Below, in pieces: positions 4,117 through 49,375 of a stretch of 64,000 nucleotides of DNA. How positions within the stretch are numbered: the first letter of the stretch is position 1; every line of letters starts with the position of its first letter. Origin of the DNA: a virus (taxonomy: Duplodnaviria > Heunggongvirae > Uroviricota > Caudoviricetes); IMG/VR virus record IMGVR_UViG_2744054962_000001. One strand, given 5' to 3'. The notes below the pieces were generated by a model. That model saw nothing but the letters and a program-made list of their open reading frames with translations. It searched no databases and had not been told where the DNA came from. The position numbers were made by a program, and so were the translations under genes.

Positions 4117-4848
4117 ATGCTAGCGCCTACTTATTTCAAGGATGAAACAATGGGAATTAAAGCTGATATTCAGAGCTTATCTCCCTCTGCACTCATTGAG
4201 TTGTTCGTACTGGATATGTCGAACACAACTTCAGGGGGGAAGTTATTCTTCCACGCCGGAACAAACGAACTGATGCAACCGGTCGTCTGGCAAGGAGTGA
4301 CATACGAGCCGTGGCCAATCAAAGCATCAGGCTTTGACAAAACTGGCCAGGGAACGTTGCCACGTCCAAAAATTCAGGTATCGAACTTTGCCGGAACCGT
4401 CTCTGCGGAAGTTCAGGCGAACGACGATCTTGTTGGCTGCCGCATTATTCGCAAGATGACGCTGGCTCGCTTCCTCGATGCCGTTAATTTTAAAGACGGC
4501 AACCCAACAGCAGATCCAAACCAACATTTCCCGGATGAAATGTGGTTTATCGAACAGAAAACTCTCGAAACTCATCAGGTTGTCGAGTTTGAATTGTCCA
4601 GTGTGTTCGATTTGATGGGGGTGCAACTGCCGTATCGTCAGATCATTAAAAACACCTGCCCGTGGAAATACCGAGGGCCAGAATGCGGCTATACCGGTCC
4701 ATATTTCGACAAAAATAACCAGCAGACGTCTATGTCTGGTGCTGATTACTGCACAAAACGTTATGACGCCTGTAATGCGCGTCGGAATTATTTTGCCAAC
4801 GGAGTGATCCATTTTGGCGGGTTTATTGGAGCTACGCGATATGGGTAA
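4117..4848 (+). CDS. minor tail protein L-like
   Basis: 243 aa; C-terminal Cys cluster CPWKYRGPECGY...YCTKRYDAC as in lambda gpL; synteny. Confidence 0.65.
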   Translation: MLAPTYFKDETMGIKADIQSLSPSALIELFVLDMSNTTSGGKLFFHAGTNELMQPVVWQGVTYEPWPIKASGFDKTGQGTLPRPKIQVSNFAGTVSAEVQANDDLVGCRIIRKMTLARFLDAVNFKDGNPTADPNQHFPDEMWFIEQKTLETHQVVEFELSSVFDLMGVQLPYRQIIKNTCPWKYRGPECGYTGPYFDKNNQQTSMSGADYCTKRYDACNARRNYFANGVIHFGGFIGATRYG

Positions 4849-5638
4849 TAAAGCAATCCCTGAGCTTGGCTCTGATGTTATGCAGCAAATCTATCTCTGC
4901 GCCATAAATCGCTACCCTAATGAAGCGTGTGGCTTTCTGGTGAGAACTAATGGCGACAAATATCGCTTTATGGAAGCGCGAAATGTTTCGGAGAACCCGC
5001 AGAACACTTTTGTAATGCACGTTGACGACATTATGGCGGCAGAGGATGCGGGTGATGTTATCGCAATCTGGCATTCACATACTGATGAATCAGCAGAAGC
5101 ATCTGATGCCGATCGTGCAGGCTGCGAAGCGACGGAAGTTCCGTGGATGATTCTGGCTATTCGCAAGAATGTTGAGGGAGATGCCCCTTTCCATTTTAGC
5201 GAGATGAATGTGATCACTCCTGATGGTTTCGAAATGCCATACCTGGGTAGACCGTATGTATTTGGCGTATTCGATTGCTGGATGTTGTGTCGGGACTATT
5301 TGAAGCGTGAGTTTAACGTCGAGCTTAACCCGAACGCACACCTGCATATTCCATCGTGGTACACCGGCGATAACGACATTCTCGACCAGAACTACCGAAA
5401 CGAGGGATTGGTACGGCTTGCGCCTGGAACAAAGCCTCAACGTGGGGACGTCTTCTTTATTCAATACGGGAAAATGCCAGATCACTGCGCGGTTTATATC
5501 GGCGATGGAATGATTCTTCATCACCAGATCGACCGTCTTAGTTGTCGTGCTTATTACGGCGGAATGTATCAGAAACATACGACGCATCACTTGCGTCACA
5601 GAGACTTGCTCAAGGGAGATGAGACGTGTCTGAGTTAG
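4841..5638 (+). CDS. tail assembly protein K-like (MPN/JAMM plus NlpC/P60-like)
   Basis: EACGFLV and WHSHTDE (JAMM-type HxH) motifs, later Cys/His peptidase-like region; ORF track starts at 4814 but the ATG at 4841 overlapping the gpL stop is the likelier start. Confidence 0.6.
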   Translation: MGNKAIPELGSDVMQQIYLCAINRYPNEACGFLVRTNGDKYRFMEARNVSENPQNTFVMHVDDIMAAEDAGDVIAIWHSHTDESAEASDADRAGCEATEVPWMILAIRKNVEGDAPFHFSEMNVITPDGFEMPYLGRPYVFGVFDCWMLCRDYLKREFNVELNPNAHLHIPSWYTGDNDILDQNYRNEGLVRLAPGTKPQRGDVFFIQYGKMPDHCAVYIGDGMILHHQIDRLSCRAYYGGMYQKHTTHHLRHRDLLKGDETCLS

Positions 5639-27475: not shown

Positions 27476-28253
27476 AAACATATCGATAAGTATTTACTTA
27501 CTTATCCTTTGTGTATAAGATGACTTTGTTTTCGTTGAGACGCGACTGTTTGAACTTAAATACAAGTGCAAACGAAGAAGTCTATCTGGCAGTAGCCTAA
27601 TAAGCCAAACACCAGCGAGGTCAGTTTCCAGCCTCGTTACCGAAATGGGACACACTGAGCGAGTGTGATTGCAGAACGCAGGAGGGAACATTCATGTTCC
27701 CTCCGATGAAGTAACAGAATGGGCGGTTGGTATATTTTCAACTCCATATGACTCCCGGATTCTTAGCCACTGACCGCCCATCCTGTTACGTCATTTTGTT
27801 CAATTATGTCGTTTATACTGGGTTAAAAAGCGGCGACGTAGCCCGGCTGGTATGGTTAGCCAGCACACAACGTTGAGGCCATTACATTTTTATCAATTCT
27901 AAGGTTCTATTCACAGAGATACCGGCGAGCGTTGATATGTAACATGTTGGGCAAACATTCAATCGGAGTAGTGGCCTCAACGTTGTGAAGACGGGATTGT
28001 TGTGTAGGTTTAACCACTGTTGCCATTGGTGCCTGTTTTCACAACAAATGATTCCATACATCACATTGTATAAATTACAAAGTAGGTGCTGTCCTCAGAA
28101 ACATCATCTACTTAAAGATTTTGCCTTCTACTATTGAGCGAAGTCGAAAGCGTCTGGCACTAACGAAAAGTGCAAGTAGCGGTGCGTTTCATGGCAGAAA
28201 CTAAACCGTCGCGATTGGCACTGTTGAGTAATAAATACTGGCAGTGCTGAATT

Positions 28254-44297: not shown

Positions 44298-46637
44298 ATG
44301 GCAAAAGGAAAATCCGCACTGGCACTTGCTCTGAAAAAGAAAATCGGTAGCAACGACGAAATTCAGAAAGTAACTCATTGGATTGATACAGGCTTTCCAC
44401 CGTTAAACAAAGCTATTTCTGGTCGTTACGATGGCGGCTTCCCATGTGGTCGTATCGTCGAAGTATTCGGTCCTCCAAGCGCGGGGAAATGTGTTACCGC
44501 AGACACCATGCTGCTGACGGAGCGTGGAATGGTAACAGTGAAAGAGTTGTTTGAGATTGAAGGGTACAAAGCGACATGCACTACTCGCGATGTAGAGCAT
44601 AACGTTGGACTCATCAATGAAAATGGCGTGATAGAGAAGACCTCACACCTGACATGGAACAACCGTCGCAAATTCAAGCGTATTAAGCTGGCATCAGGCG
44701 GTTATATCGAGGCTACGTTCCGTCACCCAATCCGTGTGGTTGACGACTTAGGTAATGTCGTCTGGCGACATGCTGAAAAAATCAGTGTAGGCGACACGAT
44801 TCCTTCAATGGTTGGCACACATCAATTCGGCGATCAGCACCTGGATGCCAATATCGCAAAACTGATGGGCTATTTAATTGCTGACGGATACGTGGCCTCT
44901 GAAAATTCAGTGAATTTTTCTAACACAGATCCTTTCATCAAGGATGAGTACTACCGCCTCATTTCGCTGGTATCAGACAAGATGCCAGTTACGAGAAAAC
45001 ATAACGGCTCGGAAGACCATGTGCTGTTTAGCAAAGAGGTGCGTTCGCTGCTTTTTAAAGAATATGGTCTGGAGTATGAGAAAGCTGCTGGCAAGCAGGT
45101 TCCGTTGAGTGTGCGTCGCGCCAATAGCGAGGCTCAAATTGCATTCCTTCGCGGCTACTTTGAGCTGGAATGCCACGTCAATGATGGTCGCTGCATTGAG
45201 GTTGTGAGCGCGAGTGGGCTGCTGCTACAGCAAATTCGCCTCATGCTCCTGAATCTGGGGATTACGTCAACTATCTCTGAAAAACACGTCGCGGGTTATG
45301 AAAATACATATTACCGGCTGTCATTCAGTGGCTCTAATTACGACCTTTTTCTGTCAACGATTGGTTTCGAATCTCCGGCACGTTTATCAGTGGCAACCAA
45401 ACGGGACATTGGTTTTGACCGCACTTACTCAGGCTATGTTCCGCACATCAGCGGCTTAGTGAAATCACTCTACGAGTCGCTCACCAAGACCACCCGTGAA
45501 GACTACGCTCTGGTAGACCACGTTATTGGCCGCGGCGATCGTGTCGGAATAGACAAACTGCGAGAAATCTATGTCTCCTTCATTGGCAGAAAGAATCGTT
45601 TTAACGAGCATCTGTTTGCACAACTGGCAGCGGTAATTGGCTCTAACTTGTTCTACGACGAAGTCGTGGCTATTGAGGAAGGTGAAGCACCAACGTTCGA
45701 CGTAGCGATGCCGGAAACACACTCTTTCTGGTCTAACGGGATTATCAGCCACAACACATTCCTTGCAACAGCAGCGATGATCTCCGCTCAAAAACAAGAT
45801 GGTCTGGCGGTATTCCTCGATCATGAAAACAGTTTTGACGTTGGCCTGGCTGTAGCCAATGGCCTGAACGCAGATGAGGATGACGGTCAGTGGGTATACA
45901 AGCAGCCTGATACCTTCGAAGACTCTGTAGAGTTGATCGGCACAATACTTAAATTGGTACGTGATGAAGAGCTTATCCCCGAATCAGCACCTATCTGTAT
46001 CGTGGCTGACTCTCTTGCGTCTATGGTTCCGAACTCCAAAGCCGAGAAGTTCGAAAAGATGGCTGAAGGCACTGCCAAAGACAAAGATCAGCTAAACATG
46101 AACGACAATACGGCACTGGCTCGTGCGACGAGTGCGAACTTCCCTACTCTGGCTTTGTGGGCACGCAAATACAACGCCTGCATCATCTTCTTGAATCAGG
46201 TTCGCACAAAAATCGGTGTAATGTTTGGCGACCCTACTACGTCGCCAGGTGGAGATTCACCGAAGTTCTACGCATCTGTACGTATCCGTCTTGGTGCATC
46301 GGTGATGAAGGATGGTAAAGAGAAGATCGGTCAGGACGTAGGCGCAGAATGCATCAAAAACAAAGTTGCACCACCGTATGGCAAATGCACCTGGAAATTC
46401 TACTTCGATCCTACTCGTGGCCTCGACGTTATCGAGTCGCTCGTCGAGTACATGCTGGAAGAAGGATACCTGCCAAAGAACGCCAGCGGTCGAGTAGAAA
46501 TTGGTGACAAGAAATACACCAAATCACAGATCGTCGAGATGTATCGGGAGAAGCCACTGGCTGAAATCATTGCGGCTTTGCAGGCAATCGACGACCGAAG
46601 AGCAAAAGACAACCCCACCGAGTCAGTAGAAGAGTAA
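44298..46637 (+). CDS. RecA-family recombinase interrupted by an intein
   Basis: exteins join as GPPSAGK|TFLATAAM (P-loop) with RecA-like L2 region GGDSPKFYASVRIRLG; combined exteins about 357 aa. Confidence 0.8.
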   Translation: MAKGKSALALALKKKIGSNDEIQKVTHWIDTGFPPLNKAISGRYDGGFPCGRIVEVFGPPSAGKCVTADTMLLTERGMVTVKELFEIEGYKATCTTRDVEHNVGLINENGVIEKTSHLTWNNRRKFKRIKLASGGYIEATFRHPIRVVDDLGNVVWRHAEKISVGDTIPSMVGTHQFGDQHLDANIAKLMGYLIADGYVASENSVNFSNTDPFIKDEYYRLISLVSDKMPVTRKHNGSEDHVLFSKEVRSLLFKEYGLEYEKAAGKQVPLSVRRANSEAQIAFLRGYFELECHVNDGRCIEVVSASGLLLQQIRLMLLNLGITSTISEKHVAGYENTYYRLSFSGSNYDLFLSTIGFESPARLSVATKRDIGFDRTYSGYVPHISGLVKSLYESLTKTTREDYALVDHVIGRGDRVGIDKLREIYVSFIGRKNRFNEHLFAQLAAVIGSNLFYDEVVAIEEGEAPTFDVAMPETHSFWSNGIISHNTFLATAAMISAQKQDGLAVFLDHENSFDVGLAVANGLNADEDDGQWVYKQPDTFEDSVELIGTILKLVRDEELIPESAPICIVADSLASMVPNSKAEKFEKMAEGTAKDKDQLNMNDNTALARATSANFPTLALWARKYNACIIFLNQVRTKIGVMFGDPTTSPGGDSPKFYASVRIRLGASVMKDGKEKIGQDVGAECIKNKVAPPYGKCTWKFYFDPTRGLDVIESLVEYMLEEGYLPKNASGRVEIGDKKYTKSQIVEMYREKPLAEIIAALQAIDDRRAKDNPTESVEE
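44490..45755 (+). mobile_element. intein with LAGLIDADG-type homing endonuclease domain inside recA-like gene
   Basis: begins with Cys directly after SAGK, ends ...IISHN followed by Thr; internal LAGLIDADG-like motifs (LMGYLIADGYV, FLRGYFELECHV); 422 aa. Confidence 0.75.
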
Positions 46638-46642
46638 ACACA

Positions 46643-46666
46643 AGGCGTCCACAGGACGCCTTTTTT
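46643..46666 (+). terminator. rho-independent terminator (AGGCGTCC hairpin family)
   Basis: AGGCGTCC-aca-GGACGCCT then TTTTTT. Confidence 0.7.
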
Positions 46667-46729
46667 ATCTCTTGAAAATATATAAGTGCTTACTTATTAT
46701 TTTCACATAACAACCACATAGGAAAACAC

Positions 46730-46930
46730 ATGATCAAAATCTATCTATTGGCAGTAGCCACAGGCCTTTCAGTGGCTCTCATCTACGGTTTACTGGTTCC
46801 GTCGCTGATTTCTACCAAGAGTGATTTAGCCGTCATGTTTGGAGTTATCGTTGGTTTTGGTGCTCCTGTAATCGGTCTTATTGCTGGTCGTAAGTTTATC
46901 AACTCATTAATCAAAGCAAAGGGGAAATAA
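46730..46930 (+). CDS. small membrane protein (two TM), possible partner of SPFH protein
   Basis: 66 aa, two hydrophobic helices; immediately precedes band-7 lipoprotein gene. Confidence 0.3.
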   Translation: MIKIYLLAVATGLSVALIYGLLVPSLISTKSDLAVMFGVIVGFGAPVIGLIAGRKFINSLIKAKGK

Positions 46931-46933
46931 GTA

Positions 46934-47764
46934 ATGAAGAAAGGTTTACTTGCAGTTGCTCTGGCGGCTATTTGCACAATGGGTCTTACTGGCTGCGATC
47001 GCGTGGAGCCTGGATACGTTGGCATCAAAGTAAACAAATTAGGTGAAGACAAAGGGATTGGTGAAGTGGTTGGCGTTGGTCGCCAATGGACAGGTCTTAA
47101 CACCGAACTTTACGTATTCCCGACCTTCAAACAAATGAAGACCTACGACGAGCCGTTCACATTCCAGATGAGTGACGGTACTGCTATTGGTCACAAAATT
47201 GGCGTTGCGTATCTGGTTAATCGTGACAAGGTAACGACGGTGTTCCAGACCTATCGCAAAGGCGTAGACGATATCACCGAATCAGATCTGCGTCAGAAAA
47301 TTGCCGACTCTCTAAACCGTTTGGCCAGCCGTATGACCACTGACTCATTTATCGACGGTGGTAAGGCACAATTGCTGGACAACGCACTGAAAGATATTCA
47401 GAAAGAGATGTCTCCGGTTGGTATTGAGGTACTGAGCCTGTCATGGGTTGGAAAGCCTGATTACCCAAAAACTGTCATTGAATCTATTAACGCCAAAGTA
47501 ACGGCTAACCAGCGTACTCTGCAACGTCAGCAGGAAGTTGAACAACGTAAAGCTGAGGCGAATATGCTACGTGAACAGGCTAATGGTGAAGCTGATGCTA
47601 TCCGTGCTCGTGCGCAAGCAGAAGCAGACGCCATTCGTCTGCGCGGTGAAGCTCTGCGTCAAAACCCGAACGTTATGGAACTGGAAGCCATCAATAAATG
47701 GAATGGCCAGTTACCGCAGTACATGACTCAAGGGGCTAACACTCCTTTCATTACAGTGAAATAA
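46934..47764 (+). CDS. SPFH/band-7 (prohibitin-like) lipoprotein
   Basis: lipobox LTGC after signal peptide; SPFH-like core and C-terminal Ala/Glu/Arg coiled-coil. Confidence 0.55.
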   Translation: MKKGLLAVALAAICTMGLTGCDRVEPGYVGIKVNKLGEDKGIGEVVGVGRQWTGLNTELYVFPTFKQMKTYDEPFTFQMSDGTAIGHKIGVAYLVNRDKVTTVFQTYRKGVDDITESDLRQKIADSLNRLASRMTTDSFIDGGKAQLLDNALKDIQKEMSPVGIEVLSLSWVGKPDYPKTVIESINAKVTANQRTLQRQQEVEQRKAEANMLREQANGEADAIRARAQAEADAIRLRGEALRQNPNVMELEAINKWNGQLPQYMTQGANTPFITVK

Positions 47765-47780: not shown

Positions 47781-47805
47781 AGGCGTCCAGTTGGACGCCT
47801 TTTTT
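47781..47805 (+). terminator. rho-independent terminator (AGGCGTCC hairpin family)
   Basis: AGGCGTCCA-gt-TGGACGCCT then TTTTT. Confidence 0.7.
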
Positions 47806-47855
47806 ATCGCAATTATCTTATTAAGAAAACAATTTGTTTAAAAGGATAAGAAAAC

Positions 47856-48281
47856 ATGACAGCTATTAAGAAACTCTACGATGCCGCAAACGTGGCTCTG
47901 GATGTTATTGATGATGAAGTAGCAAAAGGCTTTCCTGAACCTGATTGGGCGCATCAGCTACGAAACGCTATCGCAGAAATGACCCCACCAGATCCAACCC
48001 CCGACGAGACAGACTGGCAGCGATTCATCCGTATGTACGCTCAGGAAATAGGTCCAACGCCAACGGCAGAGCAGGCAATGCTGCTGAAATACTTCAAAGA
48101 GGCGGGAGAGGATTTACCAATTGATGACTCAGCATATTGGTTCCACTGCGCATGGCGTAAGTATGACGTGATATTCACACAAGGCATGGGAAGCAAAGAT
48201 ATGGTTGTGTGGCATCTACTCCATATAGACACAGCCGTTGACAGAGTTATTGAACAGTTTTTCCCTAAACAAGAAGATTGA
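47856..48281 (+). CDS. hypothetical protein
   Basis: 141 aa, conserved AAAAGGATAAGAAAACATG-type start context. Confidence 0.3.
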   Translation: MTAIKKLYDAANVALDVIDDEVAKGFPEPDWAHQLRNAIAEMTPPDPTPDETDWQRFIRMYAQEIGPTPTAEQAMLLKYFKEAGEDLPIDDSAYWFHCAWRKYDVIFTQGMGSKDMVVWHLLHIDTAVDRVIEQFFPKQED

Positions 48282-48612: not shown

Positions 48613-48827
48613 GTTTACAGTAAAATTTATATAAGTTGGTATCTACCTATCATGAAGATTTTTATTGAATACTTGTTACTCATCGTTTCAATAGCTTTTG
48701 TCATCGACTGCATTTTCACTGGTGTCATTCGTAAAGTCTTTTCCCCGGTGCACGACGTAGTCATAAACGCTTTGGCTATCGTGCTCGTATTTAATTCAGC
48801 ATTTGATGTAATCAAAGAGGTGGCAGC

Positions 48828-49163
48828 ATGAAGGCCATCCCATTCGCGCTGTTGTTCCTTTCTTCGATCGTTGTGGCCGACACCACTGTTTATCAGTGTG
48901 AAATGTCTGTAGCCGACGTTAAGAATGGCGCTCTTACCGACGTCATAAAAGCACCATATGGAGCGATGGTCGTAGACAGCGGCGACCAGTTCTATGTTGT
49001 GCGTGACGATCGAGTGTTGTCATCCCCATATCTCACAAATCGTAATGGCAAATTAACCGGCGTCGGAGAAGACCACTTCGTATACAACAAATACAAGGGC
49101 TTCTATGGCGTTCACGCTTCTCAGCAAAGCTACCTTTTCGATGACTGCAAGGAGGTTGGATAA
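48828..49163 (+). CDS. hypothetical secreted protein
   Basis: 111 aa with N-terminal signal peptide MKAIPFALLFLSSIVVA. Confidence 0.3.
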   Translation: MKAIPFALLFLSSIVVADTTVYQCEMSVADVKNGALTDVIKAPYGAMVVDSGDQFYVVRDDRVLSSPYLTNRNGKLTGVGEDHFVYNKYKGFYGVHASQQSYLFDDCKEVG

Positions 49164-49375
49164 TGGCATTAACACTGGCAGGTCTGGAAATCGAGAAAAC
49201 AAGCGGCTACTGGCGTGCTAAGGGTTTCAAGCAGCCTGGCATTCTTGAGCGTCTGGAACGTGAAGATGGGTATATCGTCCACCAGCGGCGTGAATGGCGT
49301 ATGTACAATCCAGAAACAGGAAAACTGACTACAAAAGCCGGAACACTTTGGGGCCTGTTGAAGAAAATACACTAA
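49163..49375 (+). CDS. hypothetical protein
   Basis: 70 aa coupled ORF. Confidence 0.25.
   Translation: MALTLAGLEIEKTSGYWRAKGFKQPGILERLEREDGYIVHQRREWRMYNPETGKLTTKAGTLWGLLKKIH

Follow-up and report, generated by a model that had tools for sequence, protein, structure and literature searches.

A 64,000-nucleotide stretch of DNA from a tailed virus (Caudoviricetes; record IMGVR_UViG_2744054962_000001), referred to here in its full length as the window, belongs to an SSU5-like E. coli phage-plasmid of roughly 108 kb and carries two adjacent genes for a 66-residue membrane hairpin and a prohibitin-like SPFH lipoprotein of 276 residues. The two products appear to be functionally linked, because their adjacency is kept in distant phages and bacteria and because the two occur naturally fused in single proteins. 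The pair is a self-contained transcription unit, consisting of a putative promoter, two translationally close open reading frames (ORFs) and a terminator. We propose, as a reading for which we see an even balance of belief and doubt, that the pair constitutes a periplasm-facing inner-membrane scaffold with a dedicated hairpin partner, which fences or stabilizes the membrane under envelope stress.

Structures of the cages formed by SPFH proteins (among them HflK/C, prohibitin, erlin, stomatin and flotillin) are appearing at a fast pace, while their contents and purpose are still debated. Prohibitin and HflK/C both scaffold AAA proteases of the FtsH family, on the same, non-cytoplasmic side of the membrane, and phages benefit from FtsH inhibition, as lambda CIII illustrates. 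The pair described here is small and portable, and thus a convenient model for how an SPFH ring recognizes a membrane client. It is spread over at least 377 phage genomes with widely differing lifestyles and reaches about 3.6% of complete E. coli genomes by way of phage-plasmids. It may also serve phages in a general function at the inner membrane. Database entries for the two genes already exist under the labels "SPFH domain-containing protein" and "membrane protein"; the apparent novelty lies in the conserved, motif-bearing hairpin partner, in the fused forms, and in the wide range of phages that have the pair. Literature on SPFH proteins in connection with superinfection exclusion, phage defense, lysis or early genes yielded annotation-level mentions only, and no functional study of the family was found there.

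Results

The hairpin protein and the SPFH lipoprotein

The two genes and the parts of their products map to the window as follows.

46730..46930, + strand: partner gene, 66-residue hairpin protein with two transmembrane (TM) segments (ORF read; hydrophobic stretches, PHROG 1130, omega)
46934..47764, + strand: SPFH/prohibitin-like lipoprotein gene, 276 residues (ORF read; family scans, AlphaFold2 model)
46994..46996, + strand: lipobox Cys21 of the SPFH protein, preceded by the signal sequence (residues 1-20)
47000..47560, + strand: Pfam Band_7 match of the SPFH protein, residues 23-209 (SPFH domain at about residues 21-176 in the AlphaFold2 model)
47468..47662, + strand: long helix of the SPFH protein, residues 179-243 (AlphaFold2 model)
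47696..47716, + strand: C-terminal motif K255-W-N-G-Q-L-P261 of the SPFH protein (conserved columns)

Each gene is present in a single copy in the window, there is one SPFH gene only, and its ORF begins 3 nt past the stop codon of the partner. The SPFH protein matches Pfam Band_7 (PF01145) with 106.2 bits, against a gathering cut-off of 23.6, and PHROG 200 "lipoprotein" with an E value of 3e-108 over positions 80-359 of the 379 in the profile; the first 79 positions, left unmatched, would fit fused members of the family, which are described below. Its N-terminus, MKKGLLAVALAAICTMGLTG followed by C21-D-R, holds a signal sequence and lipobox, with MKK, a hydrophobic stretch and then L-T-G-C21. 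The lipobox cysteine is kept in at least 90% of the family, and Asp22-Arg23 (positions +2 and +3) in 98 of the 103 close homologues with a detectable lipobox. At the other end the family shares the motif KW(N/D)GxLP, in which W256, G258 and P261 are invariant. A prohibitin/stomatin-like lipoprotein with a small two-TM protein directly upstream is what the original prediction had read from the DNA alone, and the family matches, the lipobox at Cys21 and the two ORFs, found exactly at the positions given, bear this out.

The partner is essentially two TM helices (hydrophobic stretches at residues 4-24 and 34-53), leaving no space for a soluble domain. The loop between them, S25-L33 (SLISTKSDL), is short and neutral, and the C-terminal tail carries five basic residues (+5). 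The loop motif reads P24-x-L-I-S28-x-K-S-D, with Pro24 and Ser28 as the conserved positions. The partner matches PHROG 1130 "membrane protein" (E 2e-25), which is placed in the category "moron, auxiliary metabolic gene and host takeover", and a Pfam scan matched it to no family. In PADLOC-DB 2.0 there was no match at E<=0.01 for the partner, the SPFH protein or the protein of the downstream DUF7238 gene.

The pairing is conserved across unrelated phages

A tblastn search found the SPFH protein in 377 phage records. Strictly lytic carriers include N4-like Schitoviridae, Vequintavirinae, FelixO1-like Erwinia phages, Salmonella jumbo phages, phiCbK-like Caulobacter phages and crAss-like phages; other carriers are a Lak megaphage, the temperate Stx2a phages, phiP27, phi1026b and SSU5, as well as Bruynoghevirus, a group of debated lifestyle (PMC8540360). 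Early genes of DNA metabolism (dUTPase, thymidylate synthase, DNA polymerase, exonuclease, RecA) surround the pair in about 20 sampled lineages, and in the P2-like phage P88 it belongs to the early operon, with cox on one side and gene A on the other.

A two-TM ORF stands directly upstream of the SPFH gene at all 80 IMG/VR loci examined, and the divergent partners at these loci are invisible to tblastn. With the 66-residue partner as query, tblastn returned SSU5-like phages only (6 records) and missed the divergent partners, for whose detection a hidden Markov model (HMM), built from an alignment of 24 partner sequences, was needed. Pro24 is invariant in this alignment and Ser28 is kept in at least 90%, with the consensus G-x3-P-x-L-I-S-A-x-S-T; the loop motif G-x3-P-x-L-I-S-A-x-S/D is common to the upstream partners in most of the sampled phage lineages, virulent and temperate alike. 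The HMM also matches ORFs upstream of the SPFH gene in lineages outside its building set: phage PHA46 (E 6e-9), phage Hena1 (E 3e-14), Vibrio phage CKB-S1 (E 5e-12), Pseudomonas phage D14B (E 8e-7), an unannotated ORF of phage Pokken (E 5e-9), Rhizobium phage IG49 (E 7e-14) and, weakly, a crAss-like phage (E 1e-3).

Bacterial copies were gathered from GTDB with a single narrow peptide pattern, which biases the resulting sample of 80 loci. In 57 of 77 of these loci the HMM detects the partner directly upstream, and three Sutterella loci among the 77 have motif-bearing hairpins that score under the HMM threshold. In Dyella and related Rhodanobacteraceae the pair stands in conserved chromosomal synteny (27 loci, mostly of Dyella), with a BlaI-like repressor gene and a 675-residue gene without Pfam match upstream (22 of 27) and ribonucleotide reductase genes downstream (21 of 27). 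A cellular, non-prophage version of the pair therefore exists, and it suggests a general cellular role.

Several features of individual loci were seen in passing. At Bacteroidota/Cytophagales loci (L173, L176, L178 and L182-L184) the hairpin is replaced by a conserved upstream gene of about 100 residues, whose product has an N-terminal hydrophobic segment and ends in ..PFYLxIxxLRI. The partner ORF is unannotated in the GenBank records of phiP27 (L092 2816..3004) and Pokken (L102 2287..2499). In chromosomal prophage copies of Shigella flexneri and E. coli (L113 and L114, about 4218..4915), IS1 (InsA/InsB) lies between the partner and SPFH genes and splits the operon.

Natural fusions

Hairpin-SPFH fusions of 322-392 residues account for about 18 of the 150 best cluster representatives. 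Reading from the N-terminus, the hairpin domain comes first, then a basic linker and a signal-like third helix ending in the lipobox cysteine, and finally the SPFH domain. A profile search found at least 19 fused database proteins, almost all metagenomic, and one fused protein is present on six phage-like contigs of about 72 kb. The model of one fused member (predicted local distance difference test score, pLDDT, 88.3) shows three helices at the N-terminus, then the SPFH domain and the long helix. Fusions of this kind count as Rosetta-stone evidence that the two parts are functionally linked. As the fusions join the C-terminus of the hairpin to the N-terminus of the signal sequence, both of these ends should be cytoplasmic. 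One possibility is that the lipobox in the fusions (P0125, P0135, P0136, P0146, P0400 and others; L106/L107 5001..6107; L155) is an internal signal peptidase II site whose cleavage would free two proteins.

Predicted topology and structural class

The charge distribution of the partner, read by the positive-inside rule, predicts that both of its termini are cytoplasmic and its loop periplasmic, in agreement with the order of parts in the fusions. The SPFH domain is likewise predicted to be periplasmic, judging by its lipobox signal sequence and by the topology that the fused relatives show. Lipidation at Cys21 and insertion into the membrane are predicted, and Asp at +2 would, as in Enterobacteriaceae, predict retention in the inner membrane.

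The SPFH proteins were modeled as monomers. The AlphaFold2 model of the window's protein (pLDDT 83) comprises the SPFH domain (21-176), the long helix (179-243), a short helix and a disordered C-terminus. Its best Foldseek matches are HflK/HflC (7vhq, E 4e-15), prohibitin and erlin. Sequence profiles match prohibitins with E values of 3e-12 to 1e-11 over nearly the full length, and HflK/C with about 1e-6. The nearest relatives of solved structure, prohibitin, erlin and HflK/C, are SPFH proteins that form cages on the side of the membrane facing away from the cytoplasm.

Orthology with HflK or HflC was ruled out: the protein scores 18.7 bits with TIGR01933 (HflK; cut-off 159.4) and 30.2 bits with TIGR01932 (HflC; cut-off 134.4). 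An HflK/HflC-type locus was ruled out as well, there being one SPFH gene and a lipobox signal sequence in place of the N-terminal TM anchor. Because the NCBIfam scores fall far under their cut-offs and the SPFH gene is single, we classify the protein, by sequence, as a prohibitin-like member of the non-cytoplasmic-facing SPFH clade and not as an HflK/C orthologue. The arrangement had at first been likened to NfeD/stomatin or HflK/C pairs. The likeness to HflK/C holds for the predicted topology and the fold class (a non-cytoplasmic-facing protein with a long coiled coil) and fails for the identity of the pair. The NfeD parallel did not survive: none of 24 diverse partners matches Pfam NfeD (PF01957) at E<=10.

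Selection and possible exchange of partner alleles

Both genes are under purifying selection, with omega values of 0.11-0.22 for the partner and 0.025-0.07 for the SPFH gene. Among SSU5-like elements, the region from about 46570 to 46990, which covers the partner, the intergenic region and the SPFH signal sequence, forms a local valley of nucleotide identity. At two loci (L026, L047) the synonymous divergence (dS) of the partner is 0.63, as against 0.005-0.11 for the SPFH gene, and for this reason the partner region looks like a recombination patch that swaps partner alleles, not like a site of positive selection. Diversifying selection on the partner was ruled out, given its omega values and the high dS that accompanies its divergence.

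The pair is a separate transcription unit

The cassette is delimited and led by the following elements.

46642..46670, + strand: terminator-like hairpin and T-run at the 5' boundary of the cassette, ending the RecA/UvsX-intein gene (9-bp stem with 6 GC pairs, then TTTTTTAT)
46672..46700, + strand: putative sigma-70-like promoter, TTGAAA-17-TATTAT (10 of 12 consensus matches)
46682..46693, + strand: palindromic element ATAAGTGCTTAC in the promoter spacer
46720..46725, + strand: Shine-Dalgarno-like AGGAAA, 4 nt before the partner ATG (read from sequence)
47781..47806, + strand: terminator-like hairpin and T-run at the 3' boundary of the cassette (8-bp stem with 6 GC pairs, then TTTTTTAT)

The two flanking hairpins are near-identical direct repeats of the form GGCGTCC-N3/4-GGACGCC-TTTTTTAT, at 46644..46664 and 47782..47803. 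The pattern GGCGTCC-N3-5-GGACGCCTTTT has two sites in the window, one on either side of the cassette, where none is expected, and the twin terminators could be the trace of a module insertion or exchange. The 5' hairpin is kept in 10 related elements, its 3' arm varying between GGACGCC and GGGCGCC; both arms are changed in a Yersinia pestis copy (L112), giving a compensatory G-C pair, and one arm in another element (L027), leaving a G-T pair.

About 30 nt of the promoter region are almost invariant in 10 SSU5-like elements, as compared with differences of about 10-30% in the flanking coding DNA, and the purine-rich Shine-Dalgarno core of the partner (AGGAAA or AAGGAAA) is largely kept across the alignment of related elements. 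The palindrome at the putative promoter, GTAAGTRCTTAC, has the general form (A/G)TAAGT(A/G)CTTA(C/T). Followed within 0-5 nt by a TATNNT-like hexamer, it occurs at seven + strand sites in the window (4080, 14269, 27486, 41896, 46682, 58140 and 62852), against 0.29 expected on both strands together. At least six of the seven, all but that at 27486, lie upstream of + strand ORFs, which begin at 4117, 14657, 41996 (a gp32-like single-stranded DNA-binding protein), 46730, 58201 and 62883. The combination looks like a shared promoter or operator type of the phage-plasmid. A MotA-box-like reading of the palindrome was set aside because its spacing to the -10 element is wrong, judged by what is generally known of T4 middle promoters.

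Expression of the pair in Cyrano

Cyrano, a phage-plasmid of the Crohn's-disease-associated E. coli strain LF82, has an SPFH protein 100% identical and a partner 73% identical to those of the window, and RNA-seq values are available for it as log2(fpkm+5), where fpkm stands for fragments per kilobase per million reads (PMC9928086, S1 Table). In LB stationary phase CYRAN_56 and CYRAN_57 were at background (2.32/2.32 and 4.30/3.02), and at 6 h in THP1 macrophages they stood at 7.61/7.70 and 7.25/7.42. The flanking genes were unmoved in macrophages (RecA about 4.05, exonuclease 2.4-2.9, CYRAN_58 about 4), and virions of Cyrano were not detected there (PMC9928086). Because the pair rises while its neighbors stay at background, it is an autonomous, condition-induced unit and not a constitutive lysogen gene, and in these data it is not simply co-induced with lytic neighbors. 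The pair has a promoter-like site and terminators of its own and is independently transcribed, as is expected of a moron, but is not expressed under ordinary growth of the lysogen; consistently, it is absent from the 13 Cyrano genes listed as morons in LB (PMC9928086, Table 1). Induction of the pair inside macrophages, in a Crohn's-associated E. coli, points to a possible link with bacterial fitness in the host, as would the virulence phenotype of a Pasteurella prophage SPFH protein (PMC9872710), should that protein belong to the family.

A second group of Cyrano genes was observed to change: CYRAN_60-62 (window about 48650..49375; one annotated "P1 Cra protein") rise in macrophages from about 2.3-3.8 to 8.3-9.0. 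CYRAN_58, which lies between the pair and this group, stays low, and CYRAN_59 changes little (PMC9928086).

Discussion

How the pair may act

If the pair is a membrane scaffold, the 276-residue protein would leave the cytoplasm, receive a lipid at Cys21 and, through Asp at +2, stay in the inner membrane, with its SPFH domain on the periplasmic leaflet. The helix of about 65 residues and the C-terminal motif would drive assembly of a ring or cage, as in prohibitin, erlin and HflK/C. The hairpin would be a dedicated membrane partner, either anchor or enclosed client, whose conserved periplasmic loop (P-x-L-I-S) would contact the SPFH domain. The complex would enclose and stabilize a patch of inner membrane under envelope stress, the stress being phage development in the case of lytic phages and host-imposed stress in that of lysogens. 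It might also control the access of FtsH-type quality control, as the two best-understood relatives do. Cage assembly and direct loop contact are what we infer from the relatives, the fusions and the conservation.

Comparison with known systems places the phage protein closest to the prohibitins PHB1/PHB2 and the bacterial "prohibitin family", with which it shares the SPFH domain, one long coiled-coil helix, the non-cytoplasmic orientation and an expected ring or cage. This family is the closest by sequence profile and among the best fold matches, and NCBI calls several relatives "prohibitin family protein". The phage protein differs in having a lipobox cysteine as its anchor in place of an N-terminal TM helix, and in its dedicated two-TM partner; a link to an AAA protease is not among its known features. 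In contrast to the PHB1/PHB2 heteromer it is encoded by a single gene and is thus probably a homo-oligomer. The HflK/HflC-FtsH complex of E. coli likewise has a periplasm-facing SPFH cage on the inner membrane (the side being predicted for the phage protein), gives the best Foldseek match and has a historical link to phage lysogeny, but it has two paralogous SPFH proteins in place of one, TM helices in place of a lipid anchor, and FtsH in place of a 66-residue hairpin.

Two-gene units of an SPFH protein and a small membrane protein are also found in the SPFH-NfeD operons (stomatin PH1511/PH1510, QmcA-YbbJ, YqiK-YqiJ, FloT-YuaF), and by analogy to QmcA-YbbJ (8z5g) the helices of the partner probably sit with the SPFH ring. 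YdjI (SamI) of the B. subtilis pspA operon is described as an SPFH protein that is recruited by the small dedicated membrane proteins YdjG and YdjH, relies on them and is linked to membrane stress (PMC8581546; bioRxiv 10.64898/2026.02.06.704340). It differs from the phage protein in being cytoplasmic, in having other partners and in acting with PspA. FliL, which forms a periplasmic SPFH-like ring round flagellar stator units, differs in having an SPFH-like core only, without the long coiled coil or C-terminal motif, and in its flagellar context.

A number of observations weigh against the scaffold. As a function, membrane stabilization is weakly specific. The strength of Asp+2 retention depends on the residue at +3, here Arg. 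The partner is lacking in 17 of the 77 GTDB loci (about 10 of them Bacteroidota, the rest Kapaibacteria, Ignavibacteria and others), one or two small genes separate partner and SPFH gene in KpS8, Hena1 and U47, and in CcrSwift a 4-TM protein takes the partner's place. The induction of the Cyrano pair in macrophages is modest. A patchy set of other Cyrano genes, the major capsid gene included, rises there too (PMC9928086), so that partial derepression in a subpopulation may explain the induction.

Alternative readings

We rank membrane scaffolding or stabilization first, followed by an HflK/C-like action on FtsH and then by superinfection exclusion, with lysis timing and a role in animal hosts less likely still.

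In the second of these readings, which we think unlikely but worth keeping in view, the lipoprotein mimics HflK/C: its cage would bind the periplasmic domain of FtsH, alone or together with HflKC, and could alter the degradation of FtsH substrates (a CII-like regulator, LpxC, sigma-32, membrane proteins) and, in temperate phages, shift the choice between lysis and lysogeny. Prohibitin and HflK/C are the nearest solved relatives by sequence and fold, and in lambdoid prophages the pair lies between the repressor gene and int (phiP27) or near a cI-like repressor gene (an Alcaligenes prophage, D14B). Besides the scores under the orthology cut-offs, the single SPFH gene and the lipid anchor, this reading has to contend with HflK/C itself needing no hairpin partner, and with the many strictly lytic phages and non-prophage bacterial loci that carry the pair, whose general role can therefore not be a lysogeny decision. 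The original prediction had suggested that a mobile-element copy could tune lysis-lysogeny decisions; as a general role this is weakened, because strictly lytic phages and Dyella chromosomes have the pair. The same speculation and the same objection have been published for Bruynoghevirus (PMC8540360).

A bolder version of the scaffold, which we hold only tentatively and rate no higher than the FtsH reading, is that the prohibitin-like lipoprotein and the "PxLIS" hairpin form a two-component inner-membrane cage that unrelated phage families (N4-like, rV5-like, FelixO1-like, jumbo, crAss-like, lambdoid, P2-like and SSU5-like) deploy early in order to seize one particular machine in the inner membrane of the host, such as FtsH or a complex for DNA entry or energy coupling; the lipobox of the fused form would then be an internal LspA site. 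If true, the two-component cage would represent a general mechanism of host takeover or exclusion.

Superinfection exclusion or another membrane defense is somewhat more doubtful again. The cage and hairpin would block genome entry or counter depolarizing abortive-infection effectors, and would resemble the early T4 Imm/Sp or prophage Sie proteins. A small inner-membrane protein and a periplasmic protein from the early regions of lytic phages would suit such a role, U47_14 being the first gene behind an annotated sigma-70 promoter, as would the host-takeover category of PHROG 1130. Prophage copies lie near immunity regions and beside defense-like genes (AAA_15/AAA_21, SocA_Panacea and toxin-antitoxin genes), and the recombination patch in the partner would fit the swapping of specificity alleles. 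The strong purifying selection, with no sign of diversifying selection, argues otherwise, as do the lack of a PADLOC match and of any literature report found. A syntenic, vertically inherited chromosomal copy in Dyella would be unexpected, and, although lysogens usually express their exclusion genes, Cyrano lysogens grown in LB keep the pair silent.

It is highly improbable that the lipoprotein is at heart a lysogenic-conversion factor, acting in outer-membrane vesicles (OMVs) as a TLR1/2 agonist or as a fitness factor inside phagocytes. PM0222 of Pasteurella multocida, a prophage "HflK/C-like" SPFH protein, is present in OMVs and signals via TLR1/2, and its deletion attenuates virulence (PMC9872710); this would speak for such a factor, as would the induction of the Cyrano pair in macrophages, with the qualification that PM0222 may or may not belong to the phage SPFH family. 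Asp+2 and the inner-membrane partner or fusion favor retention in the inner membrane over export to the outer membrane. Phages that infect environmental and plant bacteria commonly have the family, as do strictly lytic phages, so a role in animal hosts would be a local side effect only. Just as little credence is due to an effect on lysis timing, as antiholin, holin modulator or protectant against premature lysis alongside the phage lysis cassette, for although the inner-membrane location with a periplasmic domain recalls some antiholins, one homologue record is annotated "RIIB lysis inhibitor" and a crAss-like phage has a peptidoglycan hydrolase gene two genes downstream, the pair is not beside holin, endolysin or spanin genes in about 20 lineages and cellular copies exist without any phage.

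The host element and neighboring genes

The cassette region is 98.9% identical to Escherichia phage CMS-2020a, in agreement with the initial view of the genes as phage-encoded, and about 95% identical to Cyrano and PhiR41_1. These three elements measure 107-109 kb, as SSU5-like phage-plasmids do, and SSU5 itself has the partner gene; Cyrano has been described as SSU5-like (PMC9928086). The cassette is found on 179 PLSDB plasmids, 176 of them non-mobilizable and those listed about 100-120 kb in size. A match covering at least 80% of the cassette is held by 195 of 5426 complete E. coli genomes. Of all matching places, 198 are plasmid-borne and 101 chromosomal, the listed chromosomal ones being a prophage version of 75-76% identity. 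A Yersinia pestis NCTC5923 contig of about 108 kb (L112) has a 94% identical pair with the same promoter region, which is in keeping with the known relationship among pMT1, pHCM2 and SSU5-like elements.

In the window the pair is surrounded by a 5'-3' exonuclease gene, a RecA/UvsX-like gene with a LAGLIDADG intein, the DUF7238 gene and a Rep3-type RepA gene. The RecA/UvsX-like gene (44298..46637, + strand) matches Pfam RecA, Intein_splicing and LAGLIDADG_3, the intein interrupting the recombinase; RefSeq labels the whole ORF merely "LAGLIDADG family homing endonuclease". The DUF7238 gene (47856..48281, + strand) is a separate unit past the terminator; P88 and the other annotated phage loci inspected have no such gene after the pair. 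A single database protein (P0018, 303 residues) joins Band_7 and DUF7238 and is probably a read-through or assembly artefact.

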